This document shows, piece by piece, positions 1,863 to 48,404 of a DNA stretch of 64,000 nt. Every line of letters begins with the position of its first letter. The stretch's first letter is position 1. The position numbers and the translations under genes are program-made. Location: the IMG/VR virus record IMGVR_UViG_3300035670_000071; one strand, 5' to 3'. Source of the DNA: a virus (taxonomy: Duplodnaviria > Heunggongvirae > Uroviricota > Caudoviricetes). The notes beneath the pieces are model-generated. The model was not told the DNA's origin and searched no databases. It worked only from the letters and a program-made list of their open reading frames with translations.

Positions 1863-2105
1863 TTGATTATGGCAGAAGAACCAGAAACTCTACTCCTAAA
1901 ATTGAAGAATGATAAAGTTTGGGACGAACCGCATTGGCAAATTATTGCACACGAAAAGGATTGCCCAGAAGATTGTCACGAAAAAGATGACCCATTCGAT
2001 TGCGAGATATATTTTTATGTCGAAGATGATGTTGATTTCAGCAAGATAAAGGTAGGCGACAAGATTACACTTGATGAGGAATTTGAAGTAGTTGATAGAC
2101 AATGA
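1863..2105 (+). CDS. hypothetical acidic protein
   Basis: ORF co-oriented and abutting its neighbours. Confidence 0.3.
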   Translation: MIMAEEPETLLLKLKNDKVWDEPHWQIIAHEKDCPEDCHEKDDPFDCEIYFYVEDDVDFSKIKVGDKITLDEEFEVVDRQ

Positions 2106-2551
2106 GAAAGGGCACACATCACAACGCAAAGGCGAGGAAGCGTATTAGTAAAGGGACTCGTAAGGCATTGAAGAACCCTGAAGTAAGGGAACGTATCCTG
2201 AAAACAGCGTTCAAGAAAGGTGGTGTGGCTTGGAATAAAGATGTCAAAGGCATTCATCTTAGTCCGCAATCAGAGTTCAAAGAAGGTATAACCACAGGCA
2301 AGAAGCACCCGTCTTGGAAAGGCGGAGTTCAGAAGCCAGTAAAAGATTGTGCACATCTTTGGGCAGGAACAAACAAAAGATTAAGACGACCAAAAGTCAT
2401 ATATGAAGAACGTCACGGAAAGATACCAAAAGGATATGTAATATATCATATTGACGGAAACAATAACAATGATGATATAGATAATCTTGAAGCAATAACC
2501 CGTGCAGAATTACTTAAAAGAAATGCAGAGAAGCATAGAATGGAGAATTAA
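2102..2551 (+). CDS. HNH endonuclease
   Basis: HHIDGNNNNDDIDNL...H motif typical of HNH nucleases. Confidence 0.65.
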   Translation: MRKGTHHNAKARKRISKGTRKALKNPEVRERILKTAFKKGGVAWNKDVKGIHLSPQSEFKEGITTGKKHPSWKGGVQKPVKDCAHLWAGTNKRLRRPKVIYEERHGKIPKGYVIYHIDGNNNNDDIDNLEAITRAELLKRNAEKHRMEN

Positions 2552-5743: not shown

Positions 5744-6028
5744 TTGAGAAAGGTGAACCATTTGAAACCAGAAATAGCTGAAGAACTATATAATGAAATA
5801 TTGACTGAATGGATTGCACGGCACGGAAAAGAAAAGCTTGACCCTGAGAAGTTAGAAGCAACAAGACAGACATTGCTTTCTCTTCCTGAAGATAAGGTAT
5901 ACAAAAGCGTAGTCAATATGTCAACAGGAAAGACACATTTAGTCCCTATCAAAGATATAATCCTTAATGGACTGCGTGGTTGGGAATTAGACAAATATCC
6001 TGTTATAGACGAGAAAAAATTAGAATGA
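5744..6028 (+). CDS. hypothetical protein
   Basis: ORF in the gene run. Confidence 0.3.
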   Translation: MRKVNHLKPEIAEELYNEILTEWIARHGKEKLDPEKLEATRQTLLSLPEDKVYKSVVNMSTGKTHLVPIKDIILNGLRGWELDKYPVIDEKKLE

Positions 6029-6077
6029 AAACATTTATATATAACTTGGTATAATCAGGTATGCATAGGTATAACAA

Positions 6078-6680
6078 ATGACAAAAATAAAAAAGGCAAT
6101 ATGCACGACACTTTGTTGCATAGTAATAAATTTTCCAATGGGTAATGGAGCTTTTGAAAATGAAGCACCGATATATTCATCTAATGGAATGGCTTCAATA
6201 ATGGTCGAGGAGACAAAACCTATTGAAGTAGCAATCATTGAAGTTCCACCACCAGTTCCATTGGATAAAGTAATCAAAGAAGAGCTTGGAAAGTTCAAGA
6301 CAAATCCAGTAATAAATTTTTCGTATGTAAAAAGGATAATCAAAATAGAAAGCTATTATGACAGCAGTCTCGTCGGTTCAAGCGGTGAGAGAGGACTTAT
6401 GCAGATAATGGAAGGAACTTGGTATAATTATACAAACATTCCATTTGATAACGCTTTCGAGAGAAGGCATAATATTCACGTCGGAATAAAGCATTTAAGA
6501 AACCTTTATTCAATGATGAGAAACGAATATCCACATTGGGATAGTTTAGGCGTTCAGGATAAGCAGGTAGCGATAGGAGTTGCATACAATGGAGGATTCA
6601 CAAGATTCAAGAATACGGATTTTGATATTGGTGAGATGCCTAAAAGGTCGCAGAAGTATGCCGAGAGAATAATGGAGTGA
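6078..6680 (+). CDS. lytic transglycosylase (SLT domain)
   Basis: Catalytic IESYYDSS, then GERGLMQIM and AYNGG, the three family-1 SLT motifs. Confidence 0.7.
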   Translation: MTKIKKAICTTLCCIVINFPMGNGAFENEAPIYSSNGMASIMVEETKPIEVAIIEVPPPVPLDKVIKEELGKFKTNPVINFSYVKRIIKIESYYDSSLVGSSGERGLMQIMEGTWYNYTNIPFDNAFERRHNIHVGIKHLRNLYSMMRNEYPHWDSLGVQDKQVAIGVAYNGGFTRFKNTDFDIGEMPKRSQKYAERIME

Positions 6681-7063
6681 AGTAGATGAAAAAAACACCT
6701 AAGAAAGATGTAGATAAAATAATCAGACTCAAACCTTATACCCATACACGACTAAAAGATTTGGGAGGAAAAGGCGAGAGTTTTGATGAAGTCATCAATA
6801 AATTGATAGACAATTATGAAAAGATGTTGTTAGGGGGTAAATAAAATGGAGAAGTTTTTGGCAACGAAAGTTGACGATAAAAGTATCGAGCTGAAGTCGT
6901 CAAACGAATTGGAAGAGTTATATAAATTGCTCGACAAAGATGAGAACTTTATCCTTCAATGGGTAGAGGGTAACGATTTGCGGTCAGAAGTTAAGGTCGC
7001 AACAAATATTTCAGGTAAGGTCAAGACAGGAGAAATTGTTTTGAAGAGTAGGGAGGCAAAAAA

Positions 7064-8401
7064 ATGATAGAATTAATTATAGGTGGAATAGCATTGTTTA
7101 TACTTTTTGTGTTCATAATTGCAGCGTTTTCGTGGTATAGAATAGTAGACCCAAGCGAAGCACATTTAGTTGTAACACCAAACAAGAAGTTTGTTGTATC
7201 GCCAGATGATGAAGTTGCAACAAACGGAGCAAAGACATATTTTGCGATTCCAAGTTGGCTACCTTTCTTTGGTAGGGCAATAAGGATTCTTGACGTGACA
7301 ATCAAGGAGATTGTTATTATGCAGGAGACTTATGAAAAGAGTCAAGCAAGATATAATGTAAAGTCAAGCACTAAATACAGAATTAAAGACGTAAGAACTG
7401 CGGCAGAGACTTTTGTTAGTAACGAAGAATTGCAAGAGCAACTTAAAGAAGTTGTTAGTGCATCAGTTAGAGCAGTTACTGTAAAGTATGATGTTGTAGA
7501 TGCAAGAGCAAACAAGCAGAAAATGAGTGAAGAAATTTACAAAGAAATGAATGATGACTTGCAGAAATGGGGTCTTGAACTTGTTAACTTCCAGTTAGTT
7601 GACTTCCAGGACACAAAGGATTCGTCCATCATTTCAGACATCTCAAAGAGACGTGAAGTTGAGATTCAATCAACCACAAGAGAGCAGAATGCAGAAAAGA
7701 TTAAACAAGCTCGTGTAAAAGAAGCTGAAGCTGAAGAGAATGCAAGAAAGAGAGAGATTGAAAAGGAAAAGGTAATTGGAGAGCAAGAACAACTTAAGAC
7801 TCAGAAGATTGCTGAAATGCAGAAAACAGCAGAAGAAAAGAGATACGAGGTTGTCAAAGTTCAGACAATCAAACAAGCTGAAATCACTAAGGAAAAAGCT
7901 ATTGTAGAAGCAAACCAAAAGAGAGACACAGAACGAATTTATATGGAGCAGAAAAAGCTTGAAGGTCAGGGAGACCGTGCAAGAGCAGAAGAACAAGCTA
8001 AAGGAGAAGCGGCTCCAATCAGGGAAAAAGGATTTGCGGAAGCAGAAGCAAAAGAGAAACTTCAAGCCGCACTTAACAAGTTCGGTGACGCTGCAATCAG
8101 AGCACTTGTCGCTGAAAAGGTTGTTGAGATGCAGAAGGTCGTTGGTGTAGAGACAGCTAAATCACTTGGACAAGCTGATGTGAAAGTATTCGCAGGTGGC
8201 GGAAAAGCAGGAGAAGAAGGCTTTGAACTCGGTAAGATGATACAGGCAATGTCTGTAGCTAACCCAAACACAGCAGATGCAGTGTTAAACAAGATTGCAA
8301 GACCAAATGATTTGGGATTGACAGCACTTGGATTGGAAGCAATGAAGGAGACCACTAAGAAGAAAGAGGATGCTCCTTTCAAGCAGAACCAAAAGAAGTA
8401 A
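7064..8401 (+). CDS. SPFH/band-7 flotillin-like protein
   Basis: N-terminal TM, PHB domain, long EA-rich coiled coil; GGGAGG ribosome-binding site. Confidence 0.7.
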   Translation: MIELIIGGIALFILFVFIIAAFSWYRIVDPSEAHLVVTPNKKFVVSPDDEVATNGAKTYFAIPSWLPFFGRAIRILDVTIKEIVIMQETYEKSQARYNVKSSTKYRIKDVRTAAETFVSNEELQEQLKEVVSASVRAVTVKYDVVDARANKQKMSEEIYKEMNDDLQKWGLELVNFQLVDFQDTKDSSIISDISKRREVEIQSTTREQNAEKIKQARVKEAEAEENARKREIEKEKVIGEQEQLKTQKIAEMQKTAEEKRYEVVKVQTIKQAEITKEKAIVEANQKRDTERIYMEQKKLEGQGDRARAEEQAKGEAAPIREKGFAEAEAKEKLQAALNKFGDAAIRALVAEKVVEMQKVVGVETAKSLGQADVKVFAGGGKAGEEGFELGKMIQAMSVANPNTADAVLNKIARPNDLGLTALGLEAMKETTKKKEDAPFKQNQKK

Positions 8402-17871: not shown

Positions 17872-18012
17872 TTGAGATTGGAATTATTGAGGTAGGGTTG
17901 GTGTTCCTAATAATTGGCGGAATCTGGGCTTTCGTCCAATTCATTCTTCCACTTATGGGGGAATAGAAACATTTATATATAAGTTAGTATATACTAACTA
18001 TATCGCATTTGC

Positions 18013-19608
18013 TTGAACCGCAATTTATCGGCGATGGAGGAAAATACAATGGCAAGATTTAATGCTAAAATATCAGAGTCTACAAAGACTACAAATCACG
18101 AAGGTGCAATAGCTTACAAGCTAACACCTGAACTTGAGCTATACGCTACAGTTTGCACTGCATCATTGCAGGACAAATTCTATGAAAAGGCAGATGAAAC
18201 TCTAACAAGAATCAGAGCTTTAATCAAGAAAGTCGACCCTATGTTCGTTGCTAAGTTAGCAGTCTACGCAAGGGAACAGATGTATCTTAGAAGCATTCCT
18301 TTAGTCCTTGTCATAGAACTGAACAAGCAGGTAGAAGACAAGTCTTTAATTGTCCCACTTACAAAGAGAGTCATCCAAAGAGCTGATGAGATTACAGAGC
18401 TTCTGGCATACTACCAGACAGCAAACCCTCAGAACGCTAAGGAAGTTAAGGGCAACAAGAAAAAGCTCTGCAAACTATCTAAAGCCCTATCTAAAGGCAT
18501 TGCAGAATCATTCCATAAGTTTGACGAATATCAGTTTGCTAAATACAATACTGATGGCGAAGTTAAGCTAAGGGACGCTCTGTTCTTGACGCACCCTAAA
18601 CCAATGAACCCAACAGAGGTTGCATTGTTCAAGAAGATTGCACAGGACACACTGGACACTCCTTACACTTGGGAAGTAGAATTGTCTACTGCCAAGGCTA
18701 AAGGCAAGGAGAAGAAACAAGTCTGGCAAGAACTTATTGATTCCAATAAGCTTGGCTATATGGCCCTATTGAGAAACCTGAGAAATATACTTCAGGAAGA
18801 TGTCTCAAAAGAGCATATGATTAAGGTAGCTAAAGCTATTTCCGACCCTGAACAGGTAAGGAAATCCAAGCAGCTTCCGTTCAGATTCCTATCGGCCTAC
18901 AAAGAACTTGCAGGTTCCGCAAAGAAACGAGGCTATTCAAGGTCTGATGATGAAACAAAAATCAACAGCCCTTACGTTAGCCTTATGCTTGACGCACTTG
19001 AGGACGCTATTGCTGTTTCAGCAGAGAACGTGCCTGGCTTCGGCTATGACACGAGCATCCTGATTGCATCAGACGTTTCAGGTTCAATGCAAAAGCCTGT
19101 ATCTGAAAAGAGTAAGATTGAGAACTATGATATAGGCTTGACGCTATCAATGGTATTGCAACACAGATGCAAGGTAGTCCAAACAGGTATCTTCGGTGAC
19201 TCCTTTAAGATAAAGGCACTCCCAAAGAAGGCTATATTGGCTAACGTGCTGAAGCTCTACGAAATTGAAGGCGAAGTCGGCTACTCAACAAACGGCTACA
19301 AGGTAATCAGACACCTTATTGAAACCAAACAAAAGGTTGACAAGGTAATGATTTTCACTGACTGCCAAATGTGGAATAGTGACGGCGATGGTAGCACTTT
19401 CGTAAAGGAATGGAACACATATAAGAGTTTCAACCCTTCAGCGAAGTTATACCTTTTCGACCTTAGCGGTTACGGCAATACTCCAATCTCTACAAGAGAG
19501 AAGGACGTTTACCTGATTGCGGGTTGGTCTGAGAAAGTCTTCGGTGTGCTTTCAGCACTCGAAGAGGGCAAGACTGCGATAGATGTAATCAACAAGGTGA
19601 CTCTATGA
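18013..19608 (+). CDS. Ro60/TROVE-domain ribonucleoprotein with C-terminal vWA domain (Rsr-like)
   Basis: TROVE-type N-terminal region (HEGAIAYKL...YAREQMYLRS) and a vWA MIDAS motif IASDVSGSM; the likely true start is the ATG near 18049 behind a GGAGGA ribosome-binding site. Confidence 0.8.
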   Translation: MNRNLSAMEENTMARFNAKISESTKTTNHEGAIAYKLTPELELYATVCTASLQDKFYEKADETLTRIRALIKKVDPMFVAKLAVYAREQMYLRSIPLVLVIELNKQVEDKSLIVPLTKRVIQRADEITELLAYYQTANPQNAKEVKGNKKKLCKLSKALSKGIAESFHKFDEYQFAKYNTDGEVKLRDALFLTHPKPMNPTEVALFKKIAQDTLDTPYTWEVELSTAKAKGKEKKQVWQELIDSNKLGYMALLRNLRNILQEDVSKEHMIKVAKAISDPEQVRKSKQLPFRFLSAYKELAGSAKKRGYSRSDDETKINSPYVSLMLDALEDAIAVSAENVPGFGYDTSILIASDVSGSMQKPVSEKSKIENYDIGLTLSMVLQHRCKVVQTGIFGDSFKIKALPKKAILANVLKLYEIEGEVGYSTNGYKVIRHLIETKQKVDKVMIFTDCQMWNSDGDGSTFVKEWNTYKSFNPSAKLYLFDLSGYGNTPISTREKDVYLIAGWSEKVFGVLSALEEGKTAIDVINKVTL

Positions 19609-19871: not shown

Positions 19872-19944
19872 ATCACGCTTCCTTATGGGCTTGACAACTG
19901 CCAATGAAATTGTCTGGGTTTATATTGTTGTCCCAAAATGACTA

Positions 19945-20150
19945 TCGGGCTTTGAAATCCGCAAGGATTCCAGAGCTACGTCAAAGAAACAACCATCGTC
20001 TGCCACCTGATGTATGAGCGTGGTGAGCTGCAACCCTTCGGGGTTGGTGACCTCATAAGGACTCGAAAGAGCAGGTCACCCGTGGGATGCTCTGAACTCC
20101 CTGAACTTTACTGCCTTTTCCTATAGGCGAAAAGGCAACCTTTTTATATT
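19945..20150 (+). ncRNA. candidate structured ncRNA (Y-RNA-like) 1
   Basis: ORF-free stretch; UUCG-capped hairpin caacccTTCGgggttg; 8-bp helix ggtgacct/aggtcacc enclosing a GAAA tetraloop; ends in a hairpin plus T-run. Confidence 0.3.
20113..20146 (+). terminator. hairpin (gccttttc/gaaaaggc) followed by TTTTT
   Basis: 8-bp stem, 8-nt loop, oligo-T tract. Confidence 0.4.
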
Positions 20151-20164
20151 AGTTAGTATATCCT

Positions 20165-20400
20165 ATTGTTGCGTGACGTTGATGAGTGTTACTTCGCTCT
20201 GGACGAAACGGTCAGGGTTCGAATCCCTGGTGTCGCTTCGGCGGCATTGGTGTAATGGTAGCACGTTAAATACACTCGTCGCTTGTTTCCGCACTTCATA
20301 GTCACAGGATGACGTAATCAAGAGTTACTTCGAAAACCAAACACGATTTCACAAAGACTCTTGGTGACTATTTCTCCTTCTGACACCTAAAATGGTGGCG
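20165..20400 (+). ncRNA. candidate Y-RNA-like ncRNA 2 containing a tRNA-like module (YrlA-like)
   Basis: At 20213..20264: T-arm cagGGTTCGAATCCctg, then a 7-bp acceptor-like stem closed by a UUCG tetraloop, then a D-arm GTGTaatggtaGCAC; lies directly downstream of the Ro60 gene on the same strand. Confidence 0.4.
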
Positions 20401-20771
20401 TAGTTAAGAAATACATCGCAAAAAATGGTTCAAGCAAGGATTCTATCCTTACAATTTCTTAACGATTGTTCCCCAACTTTACTTTAACACACCACTTTGC
20501 CAAATAGCAAAGTTTAAATTATAGAATGATTATCATACATAATTGAGGGCTTAAATTGGGTAAGAAACAAACTTGGCGAGTAGAGATTCCTATCACTGGT
20601 AAACTACGTCTTCTTCAGAGGACTAACTATCTTGAGTTCGTCAAAGTGTATTCTAATCTGGTCCGAGACATTAGATTAAAAAATAAGACGAGGCAATAAT
20701 ATGTGGGAAGTGGTTGTCATAGGAATCTTTTGCGTCATAGGATTCGTTATAGTATGGTGGATTCTTGACTT

Positions 20772-21095
20772 TTGAGGTGTATAAAAATGGTGTTAGAAAA
20801 GGTTATCGAAACTTGGAAATGTCCATATTGCAATGAAGAATACGACGATGAACTTGATGCTGAAGCGTGTGCAGAAGAATGTGCCGACGTAGAAAGTCCA
20901 ATCGAAGATGAACGAACTGAATATTACTGCGAGATGTGCGGTAAGAAACATCGTGATTATAATTATGCCGAGACCTGTGAAGAACTTCATAGGAAAAAAG
21001 AAGACCGACATTTCATCAAATGGCAACACGACGAGGAAATGAAGAAACTGGCTAAGGCCGCAGCCCATCCAGGGCAAAAGAAATTAGTGGTGTAA
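20772..21095 (+). CDS. zinc-ribbon protein
   Basis: CPYC...CAEEC...CEMCGKKH. Confidence 0.4.
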   Translation: MRCIKMVLEKVIETWKCPYCNEEYDDELDAEACAEECADVESPIEDERTEYYCEMCGKKHRDYNYAETCEELHRKKEDRHFIKWQHDEEMKKLAKAAAHPGQKKLVV

Positions 21096-21323
21096 ATGAA
21101 ACTTTTAGAAGTCTCACTCGACAATACAACAAAGAATAAGATAACAATCAAGAAAGATAGGATATTCAAGAAGCTTAACTATACCGACAAACTTGATTTA
21201 CGAGATGCGTTAATGGACTTTTGCATTGAACTCAATACAGAAGTCAAACAAGAATTAAAACAAAAGGAGACGAACTATGAAAAAGAAAATACTCGAAGTG
21301 TTCTTCGACGAAAAAGAAAATGA
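21096..21323 (+). CDS. hypothetical protein
   Basis: ORF in the gene run. Confidence 0.3.
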   Translation: MKLLEVSLDNTTKNKITIKKDRIFKKLNYTDKLDLRDALMDFCIELNTEVKQELKQKETNYEKENTRSVLRRKRK

Positions 21324-21462
21324 AGTGACCATCATAGAGACCGCAGCTTTCGGGAAACTCGACAGCTCATCTCGAACAGACATCAAGACAGGATTCCTTG
21401 AATGGACCAATAAGACAAAGATTAATGATGTTGTAAAAAAACTTGCTGGAGGGAAAAAATGA
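21277..21462 (+). CDS. hypothetical protein
   Basis: ORF in the gene run. Confidence 0.3.
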   Translation: MKKKILEVFFDEKENEVTIIETAAFGKLDSSSRTDIKTGFLEWTNKTKINDVVKKLAGGKK

Positions 21463-22364: not shown

Positions 22365-22970
22365 ATGTGTGAAAAAATGAGAACTTTTAACATAGAATTA
22401 ACCCCATATGCAATATTAAAACAATCAGATAAGCCGTGGTTAAAATTTGAACTAAGCTATATATCATATGATTTACAAAAATATTGTTATACTCACCCAG
22501 ATATATCAAAACTAAAAGAACAAATAAAAACAAGAAGATATGGGGAATTAGGAAAATGTTTTTTATGTAAAGAAAAAAAATCTGATTTACAAAATCATCA
22601 TCTTGTGCCAAACTTAGAAATAGCAAATAATTTTTTTTTTAGAATAACTGAAGGATGTGTTGTTCCTTTATGTCATAACTGCCACAATAGTTCTTTTCTT
22701 CATCATTTAGATGATAATGATGTTTGCGAAGCTATTAAAATAAGAGAAGAAATGGATATATATATAAAAGAAATAAAAAAATTAATAGAAGAAATAAATA
22801 ATTCTGCATTGATAAAAATTAAAGACTTATCTTTATTAAAAAGTTTTGTTGAAAAATTTGTTGATTCAGCAATAAAACAAGAATTATCTATAGCCAATGA
22901 AATGTTTAATATAATAACAAATTCAATACCACAAAAAGAGACTCACAATGAAAAACAATTACATCAATAA
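22365..22970 (+). CDS. HNH endonuclease (very AT-rich, compositionally distinct)
   Basis: CFLCKEKK...NHHLVPN...CHNCHN. Confidence 0.6.
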   Translation: MCEKMRTFNIELTPYAILKQSDKPWLKFELSYISYDLQKYCYTHPDISKLKEQIKTRRYGELGKCFLCKEKKSDLQNHHLVPNLEIANNFFFRITEGCVVPLCHNCHNSSFLHHLDDNDVCEAIKIREEMDIYIKEIKKLIEEINNSALIKIKDLSLLKSFVEKFVDSAIKQELSIANEMFNIITNSIPQKETHNEKQLHQ

Positions 22971-23331
22971 TATAAAAAAAATTGGAAGTCGTTTACTTGA
23001 TTATAAAATATACATCAGTAGAGCAACAAGCTACATCGCCATTGTAAATACTGGAATGATTCTTATGTTGTTCCTTTCAAAACTGGAAGACTACGGAATT
23101 GATATCGAACTACAGAACTGGGGATTGCCTATCTATATATTCACACTGATAATGTGCATCTTCATAGGATACATTGATGTCAAGCTCGGGCTTTACAAGT
23201 CAGAAGTCAGTAAGACACAACAGCAGAATCCGCAGATGTTACATATGATGCAAGAACTGAAAGACATAAAAGAGGAGCTTAGAAAACAAAATGAAATCAA
23301 TGAAAGAAGAAATAATAAAAGGATTCGCTGA
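22948..23331 (+). CDS. hypothetical membrane protein
   Basis: Two TM helices. Confidence 0.35.
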   Translation: MKNNYINNIKKIGSRLLDYKIYISRATSYIAIVNTGMILMLFLSKLEDYGIDIELQNWGLPIYIFTLIMCIFIGYIDVKLGLYKSEVSKTQQQNPQMLHMMQELKDIKEELRKQNEINERRNNKRIR

Positions 23332-23406
23332 GACATATGGTAATGTTGTTGAAGTATTCACTAACAGACATCACTTCTGGTTTGAAAAGAAAAATAAATA
23401 AAAAAT

Positions 23407-23928
23407 TTAATCATCTTCTGATTCATAGTCAGCAATGATTTCAAGGAATCTCATTAGCATAGCTATTTCCATATCTGTCAAGATGATTCTGCTCGTGCAG
23501 AGATTCTTTCTCAACTGCTTCATATCAGACTTCACTTTCTTCCAATCTATACTATCATCAATAGTCAACTGGAAAGTGTGACCTCTCATATGCGGCGGTA
23601 GATGTTCGGAATCTGCTAATACGATAGCACGTTTCGCCCTGTGGAATCCTTGGTGACAAGTCTTACACAAAGTAAGGCAATTCCTTCCGCTATCCTTCCC
23701 TCCGTTCTTCTGGAACTTTACGTGGTGCAAAGTAAGATGAGACTCGGGGTATTTGCATTCGGTATTTTGGCACTTGAAGTTATCTCTCTGGAATACCTCT
23801 GCTTTGATAACATACTTATCATAGATTCTTTGTTTGAGTTCGCTTGTTAGTCTATCATAGCTTCCGCTATCCCAAGACTTAAAATACTCGTCCATTGATA
23901 CAACTTTCCTAAATACTTCATATGCCAT
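23407..23928 (-). CDS. HNH endonuclease
   Basis: KCQNTECKY...HHVKFQKNGG...CKTCHQGFH. Confidence 0.65.
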   Translation of the reverse strand: MAYEVFRKVVSMDEYFKSWDSGSYDRLTSELKQRIYDKYVIKAEVFQRDNFKCQNTECKYPESHLTLHHVKFQKNGGKDSGRNCLTLCKTCHQGFHRAKRAIVLADSEHLPPHMRGHTFQLTIDDSIDWKKVKSDMKQLRKNLCTSRIILTDMEIAMLMRFLEIIADYESEDD

Positions 23929-23963: not shown

Positions 23964-24039
23964 TGAGCTGGACGGGATTTGAACCCGCAGCCACTCGATT
24001 AAAAGTCGAGTGCTCTAAACCAGGTTGAGCTACCAGCCC
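23964..24039 (-). tRNA. tRNA-Lys(UUU)
   Basis: Hand-folded cloverleaf; anticodon loop CTTTTAA; T-arm GCGGGTTCAAATCCCGT. Confidence 0.7.
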
Positions 24040-24042
24040 GTA

Positions 24043-24115
24043 TACCCGCACTGAGATTCGAACTCAGATTTGACGGTCCGAAGCCGACTGGACTTGTCCC
24101 TTATCCTATGCGGGT
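24043..24115 (-). tRNA. tRNA-Arg(UCG), putative
   Basis: Anticodon loop CTTCGGA with one U-U mismatch in the stem; canonical T-arm. Confidence 0.5.
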
Positions 24116-24821
24116 GTTGCCTTTCTCTGCTTCCAACATATTTACTAACTGATACACACCTGTCAATCCACCATATTCGTTACGTTCTATCCGACCTATT
24201 TTGGCTAAATTATATGTCGACAGTGTATCAAGGAATCGTTGTTTATAGACAAAGCTGATGCTCAGATATATGCTCTCTGCATTCAGCTCCTTCATATATT
24301 CATTGATTCGTTTGAACCAGTGCGTTATTTCATTGTCACGTATACGACTGAAACGTGCAGCCGATTGTCCTCCTTTCTTATGTTTGTGTGGCACTTCGCT
24401 GTGGATGTCGATGAGCTTTTTTATCTCTCCATCACTCATAACCTGTGCCCCGTAACATTCTTCAAGGTCGATGATTAATATTGTATACATCAGAGACGGC
24501 TCTCCACCGAATGTGAGAAGTTCCTTTCCACAATAATAATGCTTTGTCTTTCGCTTGTAAGGCTCTACTGTGAAATTCTCATCATCCCAAAAGAGACTAA
24601 CTCCAGATATACCAGGGTTGGAACTAAAGATAGTGTGCTATCTTATTGAGTCCCGTAAGTGTTTCGATACGGGTCTTGTTATCTTTTATGTTCCGTGCAG
24701 AACATATCTCTTTTCCAATGTCTGGTGCGTCTGCACCAACTGGTATGTGCATACTTATCATTTTCGTTCCTCCATATATTTTAGTGGACAGACTGGGATT
24801 TGAACCCAGGTTCTCTCGCAT
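24101..24821 (-). CDS. eRF1/aRF1-type peptide chain release factor (N and GGQ domains only), split across two frames at a CUU-UAG site
   Basis: N-part GTKMISMHIPV and CSARNIKDNKTR resemble the eRF1 motifs GTSMISLIIPP and TASNIKSRVNR. After a +1 shift at UAUCUUUAGU the frame stays open through YYCGKELLTF to KKGGQSAARFSRIR, which resembles eRF1 GRGGQSALRFARLR. Confidence 0.6.
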
Positions 24822-24858
24822 ATCAGGCGAGTGCGTTAACCAACTTTGCTATCTGTCC
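24785..24858 (-). tRNA. tRNA-Ile(GAU)
   Basis: Anticodon loop CTGATAT; canonical T-arm and acceptor; weak D-stem. Confidence 0.65.
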
Positions 24859-24860
24859 GA

Positions 24861-24931
24861 TGGGAATACTGAGAGTCGAACTCAGGGCTTCTGGTCTGGA
24901 GCCAGATAGGTTGCCACTACCCCATATCCCC
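24861..24931 (-). tRNA. tRNA-Trp(CCA)
   Basis: Anticodon loop CTCCAGA. Confidence 0.65.
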
Positions 24932-24932
24932 T

Positions 24933-25008
24933 TGGTGCCGCCGACGGGATTCGCACCCGTGTCCCGACATCGAAAGTGTCGGATGATTGGCTTCTACACT
25001 ACGGCGGC
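24933..25008 (-). tRNA. tRNA-Glu(UUC), CCA encoded
   Basis: Anticodon loop CTTTCGA; T-loop TGCGAAT, which carries G55. Confidence 0.65.
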
Positions 25009-25011
25009 GTA

Positions 25012-25084
25012 TGGAACCGTCGGGATTTGAACCCGAACCAATAAGGCTTCAGCCTATCGCACTCCCAGGTTATGCTACAGTTCC
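25012..25084 (-). tRNA. tRNA-Phe(GAA)
   Basis: Anticodon loop CTGAAGC. Confidence 0.7.
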
Positions 25085-25086
25085 AA

Positions 25087-25162
25087 TGGTGGGGCTGGGC
25101 GGATTCGAACCGCCGTCTCAGGTTCCAAAGACCTGAATGATTGGCCACTACACTACAGCCCT
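25087..25162 (-). tRNA. tRNA-Gln(UUG), CCA encoded
   Basis: Anticodon loop CTTTGGA; A1-C72 mismatch. Confidence 0.6.
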
Positions 25163-25169
25163 ATGTTGA

Positions 25170-25241
25170 CGCTGGTGACGGGAATTGAACCCGTGTCCCG
25201 AAGTAGACAGCCTCGGATGATAGCCACTACACCACACCAGC
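25170..25241 (-). tRNA. tRNA-Asp(GUC)
   Basis: Anticodon loop CTGTCTA; G73. Confidence 0.65.
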
Positions 25242-25244
25242 ATA

Positions 25245-25317
25245 TGGGGATGAGAGGATTTGAACCCCTGTCGAGTGGTCCCAAACCACTAATGCTTCCA
25301 AGCTACACCACATCCCC
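25245..25317 (-). tRNA. tRNA-Pro(UGG)
   Basis: Anticodon loop TTTGGGA. Confidence 0.7.
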
Positions 25318-25318
25318 G

Positions 25319-25392
25319 TGGTCTGCACTGCCTGAGTTGCACAGGCCTCCTCTGGGTTACAGCCAGTTGGCACACTCCGTGCCTTAGTGCAG
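25319..25392 (-). tRNA. tRNA-Tyr(GUA), short variable arm (type I), CCA encoded
   Basis: Anticodon loop CTGTAAC; 4-nt variable region; T-loop TGCAACT, which carries G55. Confidence 0.55.
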
Positions 25393-25397
25393 GTAAA

Positions 25398-25469
25398 CAC
25401 CCGTGCTGGGAATTGAACCCAGATTTAGAGGTTAGAAGCCTCCTGTCTTATCCTTTGGACGACACGGGT
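25398..25469 (-). tRNA. tRNA-Arg(UCU)
   Basis: Anticodon loop CTTCTAA. Confidence 0.6.
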
Positions 25470-25472
25470 ATA

Positions 25473-25549
25473 TGGGTTACAGGACGGGAGTTGCACCCGC
25501 TTCACCAGTTCCACAGACTGGTATGCTTTGCTGTTACACCACCTGTAAC
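25473..25549 (-). tRNA. tRNA-His(GUG) with encoded G-1 and CCA
   Basis: Anticodon loop CTGTGGA; G-1 pairs with C73; T-loop TGCAACT. Confidence 0.65.
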
Positions 25550-25579
25550 ATTGTCCGATGTTTTTATTTACGCATTCGA

Positions 25580-25671
25580 TGCACCTGCTGGGAGTCGAAC
25601 CCAGGGTCTCACGGAATCTTCGCCGTGAAATGGCATATAAGCCGTGTGCCTTACCACTTGGCCACAGGTGC
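25580..25671 (-). tRNA. tRNA-Ile(UAU) with a 20-nt intron-like insert at the anticodon loop
   Basis: Canonical acceptor, D and T arms; anticodon stem CACGG / CCGTG separated by CTTATAT plus a 20-nt insert that repeats CACGG. Confidence 0.5.
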
Positions 25672-25674
25672 AAA

Positions 25675-25747
25675 TGCGGATGTCGGGATTTGAACCCAAA
25701 CAAACTGCTTGGAAGGCAGTTGTGCAACCAGGTAACACTTCATCCGC
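25675..25747 (-). tRNA. tRNA-Gly(UCC), discriminator A73
   Basis: Anticodon loop CTTCCAA. Confidence 0.7.
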
Positions 25748-25750
25748 ATA

Positions 25751-25822
25751 TGGGCGAAGCAGGAGTTGAACCTGCGTCCTCCTCTTTGTAAGAGAGGTGT
25801 CATACCGTTAGACCACACGCCC
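25751..25822 (-). tRNA. tRNA-Val(UAC)
   Basis: Anticodon loop CTTACAA. Confidence 0.6.
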
Positions 25823-26143
25823 TTTATAGGTTAGCCTACTCTTGATAATTGTTCATAGAATTTGCAATCCAGAATTTTATTCTGGTATTGTTGCTCAAAT
25901 CAAATGTGTTTAGAAATTCTGAATCGCAAACCTTTGGGAACAATCACCATTGATATTGAAACGGCCTTCCGACTATTACGATGCCTGTTTCTCTATCCTG
26001 ATGTTTTACCAGTGTTTGATTCATAGTGAGTATGATTATGCAGGTTATATATAAAGTTTTCTTTTTGGAAACCCAAAGGGCACTTCCTAAGAAGCACCCC
26101 GTGGGAAAAGAGGTGATTCTATAGTTTATGTCATAGCTTGTAT

Positions 26144-26156
26144 TTATATATATTTT
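26144..26156. promoter_or_regulatory. TTTATATATATTT TATA-like motif
   Basis: Member of the recurring AT 15-mer family found in intergenic regions. Confidence 0.3.
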
Positions 26157-26160
26157 TCTA

Positions 26161-26244
26161 CGCTGAGAAGGGGAGTCGAACCCCCATATCCATTCCTGGA
26201 CGGCACCTTAGCAGAGTGCTGGGCCACCATTACCCAATCTCAGC
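26161..26244 (-). tRNA. tRNA-Ser(GCU), type II
   Basis: Anticodon loop CTGCTAA; long variable arm; G73. Confidence 0.7.
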
Positions 26245-26396
26245 ATTAATCTTTCAATGGTAGATGATGAATGATGCTATCTTCAGGCAGTGGCTCACGG
26301 AACCACATATGTATCTTGTTTTCTTTGAAGGCTCTAACTACTGCGGAGTCATCGTCTTTAAATTCAAAGTCATCTGGACCATCCTCGTCTACCATA

Positions 26397-26480
26397 CGCT
26401 GTGAGCAGGATTCGAACCTGCGACACACTTCCGTGTGCGATGGTTTTCAGGACCATTTGCTCACCATTCGCCTTCACAGC
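26397..26480 (-). tRNA. tRNA-Ser(UGA), type II, putative
   Basis: Anticodon loop CCTGAAA; long variable hairpin CACAC-GGAA-GTGTG. Confidence 0.55.
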
Positions 26481-26486
26481 ATTATA

Positions 26487-26571
26487 TAGGGGGTAAGGGA
26501 TTTGCACCCTTGTATTACCTACGTAAACCAGATTTTGAGTCTGGTGCGTTTGACTACTCCGCCAACCCCCT
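26487..26571 (-). tRNA. tRNA-Leu(CAA), type II
   Basis: Anticodon loop CTCAAAA; long variable arm; T-loop TGCAAAT. Confidence 0.65.
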
Positions 26572-26576
26572 ATGAA

Positions 26577-26661
26577 TACGGGGAGAGAGATTTGAACTCT
26601 CGTAGCACCTATGTGCAACAGCTCTTAAGGCTGCCTCGTTTGACCACTCCGACATCCCCGT
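26577..26661 (-). tRNA. tRNA-Leu(UAA), type II
   Basis: Anticodon loop CTTAAGA; long variable arm. Confidence 0.65.
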
Positions 26662-26666
26662 ATAAG

Positions 26667-26739
26667 CGGTGAGGGTGAGACTCGAACTCACAGTTCCTTG
26701 GTTAACGGCCAAGAGCCTTACCTGTTTGGCCACCTCACC
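26667..26739 (-). tRNA. tRNA-Asn(GUU), putative
   Basis: Anticodon loop CCGTTAA, with C33. Confidence 0.55.
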
Positions 26740-26744
26740 AATAG

Positions 26745-26815
26745 AGGTCCATCTGGGACTTGCACCCAGGTTTTGTGGGTTGCAGCCACACGCCTTGCTA
26801 CTTGGCCAATGGACC
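26745..26815 (-). tRNA. tRNA-Cys(GCA)
   Basis: Anticodon loop CTGCAAC; U73; T-loop TGCAAGT. Confidence 0.65.
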
Positions 26816-26818
26816 ATA

Positions 26819-26893
26819 AGCCGTCGACGGGATTTGAACCCGCATAGACCTCTTTACAGGAGAGGTGCCTCAGCCGAGTTAGACTACGACGGC
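26819..26893 (-). tRNA. tRNA-Thr(UGU), putative
   Basis: Anticodon loop CCTGTAA; enlarged D-loop. Confidence 0.5.
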
Positions 26894-26898
26894 ATATA

Positions 26899-26971
26899 TG
26901 GACACTGCGGGAATCGCACCCGCCGCCTCCTGTGTGCAAGACAGGCGTTCTACCTTATGAACTAAGTGCCC
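26899..26971 (-). tRNA. tRNA-Ala(UGC)
   Basis: Anticodon loop CTTGCAC; G3-U70 identity pair present; T-loop TGCGATT. Confidence 0.7.
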
Positions 26972-26977
26972 TTTGGA

Positions 26978-27062
26978 TACGGGAAGCAGGATTTGAACCT
27001 GCGTATCACCTACGTGAACTTGGTCCTAAGCCAAGTGTGTTTGACCGCTCCACCATTCCCGT
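26978..27062 (-). tRNA. tRNA-Leu(UAG), type II
   Basis: Anticodon loop CTTAGGA; long variable arm. Confidence 0.65.
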
Positions 27063-27075
27063 GTTAAATAAATGA

Positions 27076-27176
27076 TACCGATGGGCGGATTTGAACCGCC
27101 AAATCTCAAGGTTATGAGCCTTGCGGGATGCGAACTTTTACATTCTCCAAGTTACCCTACATCGGTATATTAAGTC
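27076..27176 (-). tRNA. tRNA-Met(CAU)-like with an extra segment of about 25 nt in the D-arm (possible non-canonical intron or pseudo-tRNA)
   Basis: Acceptor ACCGATG/CATCGGT, anticodon loop CTCATAA and T-arm GGCGGTTCAAATCCGCC are canonical, but the D region is about 27 nt too long. Confidence 0.4.
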
Positions 27177-32581: not shown

Positions 32582-33166
32582 TCATAAAAGTTCAAGGGTA
32601 TAATCACAGCTCTTCGCCAAGATGCTCTGATGAGTTACAAGAAGGACAGTGATATGCTTTTCCATACAATAGTGCCTAACTTTCTTATATAATTGAGTAT
32701 ATAGATTCTCGTCAAGACTCTTGAAAGGTTCATCAAGTAATAGAATATTGGGTTCTACAATAAGTGCCCTAATAAGCAATAGCCTTTGTTTCTCTCCACC
32801 TGAGACCTTATCTATGCTTTTACCAAGATGTTGCTCTACATTGAAGAATTGGGCCATTAAACGCATCCTGGAAGTATCATCTGCTGATACCTCCCTCCCT
32901 TCAAGTTTCAAAGGCAAAAGAAGATTCTCTTCAATAGACAACCAAGGCATCAACCTATCTTCCTGAAACATATACGACAGCTTACCTTCTGCCGTTATCT
33001 CTCCCTCAAATTCCTCAAGCCCTGCAATACACCGCAGAAGCGTTGTCTTCCCAATACCGCTTGGGCCAACGATGGCTGTCATCTTTCCTTCAGGTGCCGT
33101 AAAAGAGAAGTCCTTATGGACTTCAAGACCCCCATACTTCTTGTGGAGATTTTCAATCTTTAACAT
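32582..33166 (-). CDS. ABC transporter ATP-binding protein (NitT/TauT family)
   Basis: Walker A GPSGIGKTT, ABC signature VSGGEKQR, Walker B LLLDEP. Confidence 0.75.
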   Translation of the reverse strand: MLKIENLHKKYGGLEVHKDFSFTAPEGKMTAIVGPSGIGKTTLLRCIAGLEEFEGEITAEGKLSYMFQEDRLMPWLSIEENLLLPLKLEGREVSADDTSRMRLMAQFFNVEQHLGKSIDKVSGGEKQRLLLIRALIVEPNILLLDEPFKSLDENLYTQLYKKVRHYCMEKHITVLLVTHQSILAKSCDYTLELL

Positions 33167-33893
33167 ATGAAAAGAACCTCCTTTGTGTATATCTCAATAT
33201 CCAATCTATAACTAATCCTATCAAGACAATCAATAATACTACAGCAAACAGCTTAGGGATGTTAAGGAGTCTATAATAGTTGTTTACCATAAACCCAAGC
33301 CCATTTGTTCCTATGAACAATTCTGCAGTCACAACAATCTTCCAAGCCACGGCATTTGACCTTATGATTCCAAGAAATATTGGTGGCATCATCTGTGGAA
33401 ATATGATATATCTAAAAATTCGTTTCTTGTTTTTTGTTATCGTGCTTCCATATTCGAGAAGCTGTTTATTGATATTTGATAACCCTAATTGCACGGCAAC
33501 AAATATGTTTGGCAATATGACCATCACAATTATAAAATATGGTGTTACCCACGATAAACCAAACAATACAATTCCTATGATTGTCCATACTGCTGACGCA
33601 AGAAATTGACTTGGATAAAAAATCATATCCACATATCCTGCTATCTTAGGATAGAAATATCTCAACGAGCCTATGAATAGCCCTACAAGTGTTGCAAAGA
33701 GTAGAGAGATATACACTCTTTGTGAACTTAAAAATACATTCTCCCACGTCCTTGTCTTAAACAACAAAGAGAAAAATTCTGAAATAATTTCAGACGGAAC
33801 TGGGACTATAAAATTATCTACGCTTATCTCCCATACAATTAAGATAGCAAACGCAAAGACTATCTTAAGCCAATTCCGTCTTAGCCAATTCAT
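33153..33893 (-). CDS. ABC transporter permease (NitT/TauT family)
   Basis: Six or more TM helices; conserved EAA-like loop. Confidence 0.7.
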   Translation of the reverse strand: MNWLRRNWLKIVFAFAILIVWEISVDNFIVPVPSEIISEFFSLLFKTRTWENVFLSSQRVYISLLFATLVGLFIGSLRYFYPKIAGYVDMIFYPSQFLASAVWTIIGIVLFGLSWVTPYFIIVMVILPNIFVAVQLGLSNINKQLLEYGSTITKNKKRIFRYIIFPQMMPPIFLGIIRSNAVAWKIVVTAELFIGTNGLGFMVNNYYRLLNIPKLFAVVLLIVLIGLVIDWILRYTQRRFFSYVKD

Positions 33894-33900
33894 TGTCTTC

Positions 33901-34878
33901 TCAGATAAATAAAGTATCTGTTGTTACAATGTAGTCTAACACACCCTCAGAATAAGCTGTTCCAAGTATAGCTTCCCAAGCAAACCAATCTTTATAGTTC
34001 ATCTTGTCAAGCCTTATTTCATACTTAGCTTTTTCTAAAAGGAAGTCATAATCGTCTCCACTTTCTTCAGCTTCAAGTCGTGTTATCTCTTCAAGATGTT
34101 CCTGACTCCATTCATAGTTTGCCCTGAAATATTTTATTGCATCGTCATATATCTCAGGATTCTTTTGATATTCATCATATCTTGCAACAAAGAATTTCGC
34201 AGGAGGAACCGTCCCATAGAACTCGTTCATCTCTTTTCCAAAGTCAAGCACTGTCTTATATCTGCTATCAAAGTCTGAAGCAAATATGAAATCACTATCA
34301 AACATTGCTGCATCAATTTCTCCTTTCTCTAAGAGTGCAGGTGCATTCTCTGAATCAATTCCAATGAACTCTATTCTGTCCAAATCTAAATTATATATCT
34401 TGAACAGAACTGTCTTCATAATTAATGTAGAACCATCTGTTGCTCCTTGAATACCTATCTTTTTTCCATAGAAATCTTTTGGCCCATTGATTGAAGAACC
34501 TTTCAAAGCAACAACTTGTCCGACGCTAAATCCTTTAGGTCCTACAATCTCTCTATAATATGGTGCGAGAACTTTAAATTTCTCTCCTTCATTATAGGCA
34601 ATAGCCAAATTAACTCCACTCAATACTCCTATCGTCGGTGTTCCTTTTGTAGCAAGTGTATAAAGCTCTGCTTGATTATAGCTGCTTTCTACAATCTTTA
34701 CATTCACACTTTGTGGTTCAGGAACTTTTCCTTCGTGTAACGGATAGAATATTGGATTGAAACCAACACCTGTCACAACAAGGTTTAAGTCAGGTCTTTC
34801 ATCTGGTATCTTTGGTTCGTTTGTGCATCCTGCCAGGACCAGAATCCCCAGCATTAATGCCATTATTACATATTTCAT
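33901..34878 (-). CDS. ABC transporter substrate-binding lipoprotein (NMT1/SsuA-like)
   Basis: Lipobox LVLAGCTN; periplasmic-binding-protein-like fold inferred from family resemblance. Confidence 0.6.
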   Translation of the reverse strand: MKYVIMALMLGILVLAGCTNEPKIPDERPDLNLVVTGVGFNPIFYPLHEGKVPEPQSVNVKIVESSYNQAELYTLATKGTPTIGVLSGVNLAIAYNEGEKFKVLAPYYREIVGPKGFSVGQVVALKGSSINGPKDFYGKKIGIQGATDGSTLIMKTVLFKIYNLDLDRIEFIGIDSENAPALLEKGEIDAAMFDSDFIFASDFDSRYKTVLDFGKEMNEFYGTVPPAKFFVARYDEYQKNPEIYDDAIKYFRANYEWSQEHLEEITRLEAEESGDDYDFLLEKAKYEIRLDKMNYKDWFAWEAILGTAYSEGVLDYIVTTDTLFI

Positions 34879-47960: not shown

Positions 47961-48404
47961 TTAACTCCTTATGTCCTTACCTGTCCACATTACCCAGGCA
48001 GCAACTATATATCCTATAGTCAATATTGTCTTAAGTATGCCAACAATAAATGTTGATGAATCTGATGTCATTTTACTTATGATTACGGCATTCAAAACAT
48101 TAATGAACCCAAACATATAATTATCAACTGCATTCAAAAATCTCTCTACAAACCCAAGGCTTAAAGTATCCAATACTCTGTAGATTGCGTTACCTCTATC
48201 TTCAACTGCTCCATCTGGTGTAATGCTTTGATTTAATTGCCCAGTGAATCCTTCAGTATATTTCTCGTCGTAATCAAGCCCACTTCTATATTCTGGCCTA
48301 TCAAATATTTTATCTCCATTGGAATCAACAACTAAATTTATCATTATACCAGTAGCTAAGTTGAGCATAATACTAAACAACATCAACTTAATTACTGCGT
48401 TCAT
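47961..48404 (-). CDS. membrane protein
   Basis: TM helices at both ends. Confidence 0.45.
   Translation of the reverse strand: MNAVIKLMLFSIMLNLATGIMINLVVDSNGDKIFDRPEYRSGLDYDEKYTEGFTGQLNQSITPDGAVEDRGNAIYRVLDTLSLGFVERFLNAVDNYMFGFINVLNAVIISKMTSDSSTFIVGILKTILTIGYIVAAWVMWTGKDIRS

Follow-up and report, generated by a model that had tools for sequence, protein, structure and literature searches.

Does a murein hydrolase on a viral contig reveal a murein-walled host? The question is raised by the gene at positions 6078–6680 (+) of a 64,000-nucleotide stretch (hereafter the window) of the virus record IMGVR_UViG_3300035670_000071, filed in IMG/VR under the Caudoviricetes, which encodes a 200-residue lytic transglycosylase of the soluble lytic transglycosylase (SLT) type, glycoside hydrolase family 23 (GH23). 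A first-pass annotation had taken this enzyme to imply a murein-containing bacterial host and had set it against archaeal- or eukaryote-like signals elsewhere in the window, leaving a pseudomurein- or murein-like-walled archaeon or a chimeric history as possible ways out. We find that the conflict dissolves, because Woesearchaeota and Pacearchaeota encode the same SLT family themselves. The element is at least 106 kb long and is probably a large virus, or a virus-like mobile element, whose hosts are DPANN archaea (Woesearchaeota/Pacearchaeota group; Nanoarchaeota/Nanobdellota), and its SLT gene would then reflect the gene repertoire of the host and not a murein wall around it. The earlier observation is thereby confirmed and its interpretation partly upheld, in that the host appears archaeal though not pseudomurein-walled. 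The host assignment matters beyond this one gene, as it decides how the tRNAs, promoters, release factor, Ro60 protein and surface proteins of the element are to be read.

The enzyme itself is securely recognized. The open reading frame (ORF) matches the Pfam SLT profile PF01464 with E = 4.3e-13 and 49.3 bits (curated cut-off 21.3), and in a 25-sequence alignment of the family residues E91, S92, G103, G106, Q109, N132, G136, N171 and G173 are invariant. These residues correspond to the E-S / GxxGLMQ / AYNGG signature of family 1 lytic transglycosylases, so that the ES, GLMQI and AYNGG motifs originally noticed are real; the catalytic Glu91-Ser92 pair is encoded by codons 6348–6353 (+), with GERGLMQI at residues 103–110 and AYNGG at 169–173. 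Searched against the PDB, a profile of the alignment retrieves the catalytic domains of MltC, Slt70 and MltE (E 9e-14 to 2e-8), with goose-type lysozymes as weaker matches, whereas the window protein as a single sequence finds no PDB match. Residues ~1–25 have the character of an N-terminal export signal or anchor, and a hydrophobic N-terminal segment recurs in nearly all aligned family members. The family assignment is thus sound and, to judge from these features, the protein looks catalytically competent and exported.

From 1.84 billion representative proteins, an exhaustive HMMER search returned 474 relatives of the protein (a word-indexed search gave 3). The best-ranked one has no more than 47% identity, and with few exceptions the relatives are small, ~140–300 aa within a full range of 140–467 aa. 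The eighth-best relative (P0131; E = 8e-19, 41% identity over 129 aa) is encoded on contig L008 (29 kb), where the neighboring genes specify a threonyl-tRNA synthetase (ThrRS) that has the editing domain specific to archaea, as well as aIF-1A, a KH/PNO1 protein and FtsZ, and thereby identify the contig as archaeal chromosome. The ThrRS of this contig is 68–77% identical to that of the 80 best-matching loci among 185,579 species genomes of GTDB, loci whose titles name nearly all of them Pacearchaeota, Woesearchaeota or Nanoarchaeota, with a few given as 'archaeon' and one as Diapherotrites. In 11 of the 80, an SLT homologue is found at most ~1.7 kb upstream of the ThrRS gene (mostly <600 bp), with tblastn E-values of 1.5e-21 to 4e-4 and 30–41% identity to the window protein. 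By this gene context, a small-SLT family (~180–250 aa) is encoded chromosomally by Woesearchaeota, Pacearchaeota and Nanoarchaeota. Further close relatives sit on short virus-like contigs, and a search of IMG/VR with the SLT retrieved none.

The finding agrees with the literature. Woesearchaeota and Pacearchaeota have been reported to encode extracellular murein-like lytic transglycosylases (PMC8204110; PMC9723730), which have been read as tools to bind or degrade bacterial walls (PMC8204110; PMC9723730; noted too in PMC12352652), and genes for soluble lytic murein transglycosylases have been described in viruses of DPANN archaea and of the candidate phyla radiation (CPR), where they were grouped with tail lysins as infection-related (PMC12647753). 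Since the enzyme is reported both in DPANN genomes and in DPANN/CPR viruses, it is no proof of murein in the host, and the step from SLT signature to bacterial host does not hold.

Two further genes, unrelated to the first, point to the same lineage. The eRF1-like factor that the first-pass annotation had noticed is present at 24101–24761 (−), split between a 45-codon ORF and an ORF in the +1 frame. The joined product of 219 aa comprises the N and M domains of an aRF1/eRF1-like release factor (NIKD loop and YxCxxxL motif in the N domain, GGQ in the M domain), the C domain being absent; it matches Pfam eRF1_2 with E = 6e-10 as well as eRF1/aRF1 entries of the PDB, and its AlphaFold model (mean predicted local distance difference test score of 73) has ribosome-bound eRF1 as best Foldseek match (E = 1.6e-11). 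Among its relatives some 70 short, virus-type factors on virus-like contigs rank first, and every named cellular protein among the next matches is an aRF-1 of Candidatus Woesearchaeota, Nanoarchaeota or Nanoarchaeia, at 28–34% identity and 44–57 bits as compared with 24 bits for the best aRF1/eRF1 of the PDB.

The third gene set, at 32582–36107 (−), encodes an AMP-binding-like protein, an NMT1-type substrate-binding protein (SBP), a permease and an ATP-binding cassette (ABC) ATPase, in the order found on an archaeal chromosome. Named relatives of the NMT1/SsuA-type SBP come exclusively from metagenome-assembled genomes (MAGs) of Nanohaloarchaea (50% identity) and Nanobdellota (43%). The Nanobdellota contig carries SBP, permease and ATPase genes with an aspartyl-tRNA synthetase gene on the same contig, and an 83-kb archaeal chromosome contig (L094; histones, PolB, RPA) preserves the full AMP-binding – SBP – permease – ATPase order. 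The element thus holds a complete binding-protein-dependent ABC importer together with an AMP-binding-like enzyme, and a related viral contig of 127 kb has the SBP as well (P0307). Because release factor, SLT and ABC cluster agree, a DPANN host is most likely, an assignment that we infer from the affinities of these three independent genes. The informative best hits are archaeal and point to no consistent bacterial lineage, so that the archaeal reading survives a best-hit check.

In line with this assignment, the translation signals of the window are of archaeal type, and its transcription signals resemble archaeal ones. An array of 25 tRNA genes occupies 23964–27166 (−), with the release-factor gene inside it; ARAGORN and Rfam each find 23 (23964–27062, −), to which a tRNA-Tyr and a tRNA-Met were added by hand. 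The intron-like tRNAs of the earlier description are borne out. In tRNA-Ile(UAU) (25580–25671, −; 61.8 bits), a 20-nt intron lies at 37/38 (ARAGORN intron mode i(38,20)), and the splice region can be read as CACGG-CTTA-TAT-GCC-ATTTCAC-GGC-GAAG-ATT-CCGTG, that is, a 5-bp outer helix, a 4-bp central helix with one A·G pair and an inner GCC/GGC helix, with the 3-nt bulges TAT and ATT at the splice sites. On this layout the intron is a near-canonical bulge-helix-bulge (BHB), and removal of such introns needs the archaeal splicing endonuclease. In tRNA-Met(CAU) (27076–27166, −; 45.4 bits, A1-U72), an ~18-nt D-loop insertion, which can pair as an AACTT/AAGTT hairpin, may be a non-canonical intron.

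Identity elements, read with the Rfam gene boundaries, tell a similar story. The tRNA-Tyr(GUA) candidate (25319–25392, −), located in a 79-nt gap between tRNA-Arg and tRNA-Pro, forms a perfect cloverleaf of class I with a 4-nt variable loop, C1-G72, A73 and an encoded CCA, with atypical A8 and G55. The tRNA-Trp gene (24861–24931, −) has G1-C72 and A73, as does its counterpart in a Woesearchaeota MAG (L025); tRNA-Gly(UCC) (25675–25747, −) has the A73 that had been pointed out before; tRNA-Pro has G1-C72/A73; and tRNA-His has an encoded G-1 opposite C73. By the established identity rules, C1-G72/class I for Tyr, G1-C72/A73 for Trp, A73 for Gly and G1-C72/A73 for Pro are archaeal/eukaryal sets, the Tyr and Trp forms not being substrates of bacterial synthetases, while the G-1:C73 arrangement of tRNA-His is prokaryotic. 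The four sets of the window are, by these rules, of archaeal/eukaryal and not of bacterial type.

As for the TATA-like motifs, TTTATATA occurs 13 times in the window against 5.5 copies expected, a count reached by none of 100 shuffles. Four intergenic copies belong to the extended form GAAA(A)C(A)TTTATATA, whose longer version ends in (TAA), and are oriented toward the downstream gene: one precedes the SLT gene (GAAAACATTTATATATAA, 6027–6044, +, its TATA core starting 44 nt upstream of the start codon), one the Ro60 gene (17965–17982, +), and the others lie at ~26055 (−) and ~46337 (−). Several A-rich/TATATATATAAA variants are likewise intergenic and point at the downstream gene. The extended motif looks like a B recognition element (BRE) plus TATA promoter, by resemblance to the known consensus. 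Ribosome-binding sites of GGAGG type, also reported earlier, are evident as Shine-Dalgarno (SD)-like motifs at −20 to −4 of 37 of the 78 gene starts, as opposed to 4 of 78 at an in-gene control position.

What would a DPANN virus gain from such an enzyme? The SLT gene is followed on the same strand, with very short gaps, by genes for a 52-aa DUF7557/VapB-like protein, a 73-aa ORF and a 445-aa SPFH/Band_7 flotillin-like protein (6686–8401, +), and the four genes probably form one operon. We propose that the BRE/TATA-like promoter at 6027–6044 would drive this SLT – DUF7557 – 73-aa ORF – SPFH unit, that the SLT product would be exported via its N-terminal signal and that, outside the archaeal cell, Glu91 would cleave the MurNAc-β-1,4-GlcNAc bonds of bacterial peptidoglycan. 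The viral enzyme could in this way supplement the infected cell's own SLT in attachment to, or scavenging from, bacterial neighbors or partners, while the element would rely on the archaeal transcription, tRNA-splicing, aminoacylation and translation machinery of its host. Export, a bacterial murein substrate and a benefit to the virus are all deduced from sequence features. The SLT gene is best read as a host-derived auxiliary gene whose product would cut nearby bacterial peptidoglycan, in view of its signal sequence, of an active site that is intact and of chromosomal homologues conserved in the presumed host lineage.

The strongest competitor retains the DPANN virus and changes the role of the enzyme, which would serve the virus itself by opening an envelope barrier at entry or lysis; the barrier could be an unrecognized glycan layer of DPANN cells or the wall of an attached bacterium. 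Phage SLT domains are indeed typically virion-associated or endolysin modules, the SLT ORF has weak PHROG matches annotated 'lytic tail fiber protein' and 'endolysin' (PHROG 14342, 669, 2013, 342; E 1e-5 to 2e-3), and the tail-lysin grouping of PMC12647753 mentioned above favors the same idea. The genomic setting argues otherwise. The gene stands behind its own promoter-like motif in a + strand block of small, mostly unknown, non-structural genes, outside the − strand block in which the very large and presumably structural proteins are encoded; the proteins most similar to its product are small and free-standing, chromosomal or virus-like, and not tail-protein domains; and no holin-like partner was recognized among its annotated neighbors (DUF7557, 73-aa ORF and SPFH protein). 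Murein, moreover, is not known from DPANN archaea. A role in entry or lysis is therefore unlikely, though it deserves to be kept in view.

A second alternative accepts the DPANN host and questions the virus: the element might instead belong among large plasmids, integrative elements or Borg-like extrachromosomal elements. Neither capsid nor portal nor terminase was recognized in the 64-kb window with Pfam and PHROGs, and a tyrosine integrase, the ABC transporter and a giant 4044-aa protein would suit an element of that kind. Structural genes may be located beyond the window, or may have diverged too far for recognition. We speak of a virus because of the architecture, namely the tRNA arrays and HNH endonucleases, the small ORFans that make up most of the genes, and the two long blocks of co-directional genes typical of large viruses, and because a 125-kb relative (L095) is present in IMG/VR, matched through its release factor only, which lies in a tRNA array there too. 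A 183-kb metagenome contig from ENA (L003) shares the integrase, the integrase neighbor, a Metallophos protein and the release factor. Related contigs measure 91, 125–126, 127 and 183 kb, beside the at least 106 kb of the window's own contig; Woesearchaeota, Pacearchaeota and Nanoarchaeota cells have genomes of ~1 Mb. A non-viral element of DPANN archaea strikes us as improbable.

The gene content of these relatives is worth recording in its own right. The 183-kb contig and a 126-kb ENA contig (L101) encode the tRNA-splicing ligase RtcB, an XPB/RAD25-type helicase, an RNA ligase and a radical-SAM enzyme; some of their genes, the helicase gene among them, are interrupted by inteins, and a TnpB/Cas12f-like gene lies near the release factor. 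A 12.5-kb contig filed in IMG/VR within a giant-virus MAG (L096; IMGVR_UViG_GVMAG-M-3300009149-34_000001) has a frameshifted release factor, 13 tRNAs, several of them with short introns, and homologues of the HNH and Metallophos genes of the window. This contig is probably part of the same archaeal virus group, not of a eukaryotic giant virus.

Several observations weigh against a DPANN virus carrying a host-type SLT. The virus-type release factor is absent from the 185,579 GTDB species genomes, so that no provirus was seen. The window has a GC content of 37.8%, at the top of the 23–38% range of the DPANN loci, and the GAAAAC(A)TTTATATA motif is absent from 520 kb of such loci (80 loci), a result that can also be counted as neutral. 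The lack of a recognizable capsid, portal or terminase, already mentioned, bears on this reading as well. The SLT protein scores 86–90 bits against the DPANN chromosomal copies, only slightly above the 81 bits of a homologue from Verrucomicrobia, a margin that does not fix the direction or source of transfer. Finally, the class I tRNA-Tyr claimed by the first-pass annotation stands as a perfect cloverleaf but as a sub-threshold call, accepted by ARAGORN at the 90% threshold (-ps90) only and without an Rfam match even at E ≤ 10; a tRNA-Tyr of the same type is found at the default threshold in the contig from the giant-virus MAG, where three or more other tRNAs have their anticodon loop interrupted by a short intron. 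A blastn comparison of the tRNA array with the 520 kb of DPANN loci, which hold 5 tRNAs only, gave no match; neither it nor the provirus search tied the element to a host through a shared tRNA, an att site or an integrated copy.

The Verrucomicrobia protein is the point of departure for a third alternative, in which the element would infect a murein-walled bacterium as a phage (with, for instance, a CPR or Verrucomicrobia host), the SLT being an ordinary lysis or entry enzyme and the archaeal features acquired or coincidental. At 37% identity it is the nearest SLT relative with an organism name, and it is truly bacterial, with TonB-receptor neighbors; the SLT domain is near-ubiquitous in bacteria, and SD-type ribosome-binding sites and a tyrosine integrase would be compatible with a phage. 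A bacterial host is nonetheless contradicted by the BHB intron with its need for an archaeal endonuclease, by tRNA-Tyr and tRNA-Trp identity sets unfit for bacterial synthetases, by the archaeo-eukaryotic class of the release factor and by the archaeal chromosomal counterparts of both ABC cluster and SLT. Moreover, 50,697 phage records contain no match either to the first 25 kb of the window (megablast, 1–25000) or to the SLT protein (tblastn), and matches in PHROGs are almost nil. We regard a bacteriophage as very improbable.

Nor do the data favor the pseudomurein archaeon (Methanobacteriales/Methanopyrales) or other murein-like-walled host suggested before, whose wall the SLT would cut. The archaeal signals are real and a wall-cutting enzyme would make sense for lysis; yet the searches that were run brought up no homologue from a pseudomurein-bearing lineage, with Methanobacteriales and Methanopyrales unmatched, and the three informative genes are all DPANN. 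Pseudomurein, with its beta-1,3-linked N-acetyltalosaminuronic acid, resists lysozyme-type GH23 enzymes, and the known viruses of pseudomurein hosts use Pei endoisopeptidases instead. This host is scarcely credible, and the chimeric history proposed alongside it holds only weakly, to the extent that the SLT domain of the host lineage is ultimately bacterial, and not otherwise. A eukaryotic giant virus (Nucleocytoviricota), which might explain the eRF1-like frameshift gene, the tRNAs, the tRNA-Ile intron, Ro60 and the sequons, and to which the filing of a related contig in a giant-virus MAG, the CUU UAG C site of Mimivirus R726 and tRNA identity features common to archaea and eukaryotes could be thought to point, can be dismissed as next to impossible, as the earlier exclusion of a eukaryotic virus had it, because half of the gene starts are preceded by SD-like motifs and the genes overlap as in operons, the gene for tRNA-His encodes a G-1 opposite C73, the binding-protein-dependent ABC transporter is syntenic with archaeal chromosomes and the release factor resembles aRF1 of DPANN archaea more closely than eRF1, and no hallmark domain of nucleocytoplasmic large DNA viruses was seen in any large ORF of the window.

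With a DPANN virus as the preferred reading, the split release-factor gene acquires particular interest. ORF A, of 45 codons, ends ...CAC UAU CUU UAG UUC, and the protein resumes in the +1 frame, which defines a putative programmed +1 frameshift site, UAU CUU UAG, at 24624–24632 (−). The same junction occurs in five distinct viruses, represented by the window and contigs L003, L095 (the same virus as L101), L096 and L102, although their release-factor proteins are only 41–57% identical. An unsplit homologue (P0004), reading ...QYL-SNNPQVSGISFYW, is colinear across the junction with the ...HYL-SSNPGISGVSLFW of the window, and the colinearity of unsplit homologues is exact if Leu-tRNA slips from CUU to UUU. 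None of the five loci has an SD-like or G-rich stimulator upstream of the slippery codon. Of the stop codons, UAG is used least in the window (9 of 78 genes). Expression of the gene would thus appear to need a prfB-like +1 frameshift, and by analogy with such genes a UAG-sensing feedback loop on release-factor synthesis is a natural hypothesis, one that would allow stop-codon-sensing autoregulation to be tested directly in an archaeal system.

Other features of the tRNA region deserve mention. Gene orientation and GC skew flip at ~23.3 kb (23300–23400), from + strand genes on the left to − strand genes on the right. Immediately right of this switch lies the tRNA array, whose GC content is higher (0.43–0.47). 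Genes for HNH endonucleases are found at 2102–2551 (+), 22365–22970 (+, with a weak PHROG match only) and 23407–23928 (−), one of them directly flanking the array, and relatives of the element likewise have HNH genes among their tRNAs. In 7 of the 25 tRNAs (Ala, Cys, Glu, His, Leu-CAA and Tyr types; the Tyr of L096 likewise), G replaces the near-universal U at T-loop position 55, giving TGCRA T-loops. Many tRNAs are bordered on both sides by 'tat' spacers that can pair and so extend the acceptor stem.

A Ro60/TROVE+vWA protein is encoded at 18013–19608 (+) and is also present in L102, ~4 kb downstream of the release factor. In the window the gene is followed by ~1.5 kb without substantial ORFs (19872–21450, +), in which a TATA-like motif (~20140–20152) precedes by ~60 nt a tRNA-like T-arm, CAGGGTTCGAATCCCTG, and D-arm, GGTGTAATGGTAGCAC (~20212–20262). 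These arms are reminiscent of bacterial YrlA-type Y RNAs, with a fold z-score of only −2.0, and Rfam finds neither a Y RNA nor any other family downstream of Ro60.

The sequon-rich surface proteins of the first-pass annotation are partly borne out: a 731-aa Asn-rich protein (43636–45831, −) has 34 N-x-S/T sequons where 12.2 ± 3.0 are expected and an Exo_endo_phos protein has 10 against 3.6, but the other large proteins show no such enrichment. The largest of them, the 4044-aa ORF at 48401–60535 (−), has as its only recognizable domain two stretches of DUF2341 (LamG-like). By their sequence, the 4044-aa and 731-aa proteins are candidates for glycosylated surface or adhesion proteins; the large − strand proteins, these two included, have no match in PHROGs. 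The zinc-ribbon miniproteins described earlier are found as three CxxC...CxxC ORFs in the gene set used.

Taken as a whole, the element is more interesting than the apparent conflict around its SLT, an enzyme of an already known type. We tentatively envisage, as a possibility that falls short of an outright proposal, an undescribed lineage of large viruses of Woesearchaeota, Pacearchaeota and Nanoarchaeota, equipped with a nearly full complement of archaeal tRNAs, BHB introns included, with RtcB or a different RNA ligase, with Ro60 and with their own C-domain-less aRF1 gated by a UAG-sensing +1 frameshift, plus host-type 'predation' genes (the exported SLT and the ABC importer) that would boost the exploitation of bacteria by infected DPANN cells, in a three-partner interaction of virus, episymbiont and bacterium. 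If the DPANN assignment is true, a translation-rich group of large viruses would be added to a clade whose viruses are barely known, and viruses of episymbionts would be suggested to carry genes aimed at a third organism, the bacterium. In practical terms, a peptidoglycan hydrolase on a viral contig is unsafe evidence for a bacterial host. Left to automated pipelines for host prediction and annotation, this contig would tend to be labeled a phage, and one relative has been filed as a giant-virus MAG.

The known systems closest to the SLT are the fam00969 proteins of Castelle et al. 2021 (PMC8204110) and the GH23 genes of Vigneron et al. 2022 (PMC9723730), which share with it the SLT/GH23 domain, the inferred host lineage and a predicted extracellular location. 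The fam00969 proteins are large multidomain constructions of up to ~3,000 aa, however, whereas the window enzyme and its relatives are small single-domain proteins of ~180–250 aa with an N-terminal signal, and, unlike the published Woesearchaeota/Pacearchaeota family, the window copy resides on a virus-like element. The 4044-aa protein of the window, although of comparable size to fam00969, contains no SLT domain. With E. coli Slt70, MltC and MltE (PDB 1qsa, 4c5f, 2y8p), it has in common the catalytic Glu-Ser, GLMQ and AYNGG motifs at low sequence identity, but it lacks their superhelical or lipoprotein accessory domains and belongs to an element that uses archaeal expression signals. Like the SLT modules of phages (PHROGs; the tape-measure lytic transglycosylase domain of PDB 9b45), it combines the GH23 fold with a viral genome; unlike them, it forms no part of a tail or tape-measure protein and lies outside the structural block, its matches to these modules being weak.

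At the level of the whole element, the DPANN viruses of acid mine drainage (PMC12647753) also combine SLT with translation-related genes; the text of that study mentions no release factors and contains no genome-size terms. Halomagnusvirus HGTV-1 (PMC8651126), which is tailed and infects haloarchaea, has 36 tRNA genes together with RNA ligases that have been proposed to handle tRNA introns. It resembles the window element in being a large archaeal virus with a near-complete tRNA set, and its ligases are paralleled by the RtcB and RNA ligase of the window's relatives; it differs in host lineage and composition, and the passage on its translation genes lists no release factor.

For the frameshift, the reference is the autoregulatory site of bacterial prfB (RF2), UAU CUU UGA C. 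A class-I release factor of Mimivirus, R726, is likewise expressed through a frameshift, at CUU UAG C (PMC3521657). In prfB and in Mimivirus/Megavirus R726 (PMC3521657) alike, a slippery CUU directly before a stop codon is followed by continuation in the +1 frame, as in the window, and the Mimivirus form CUU UAG C recurs in two of the window's relatives. In contrast to these systems, the window factor is an N+M, aRF1-like protein with no C domain and would need no added readthrough; and, unlike prfB, its putative site has no upstream SD-like stimulator, in what we take to be a virus of archaea.

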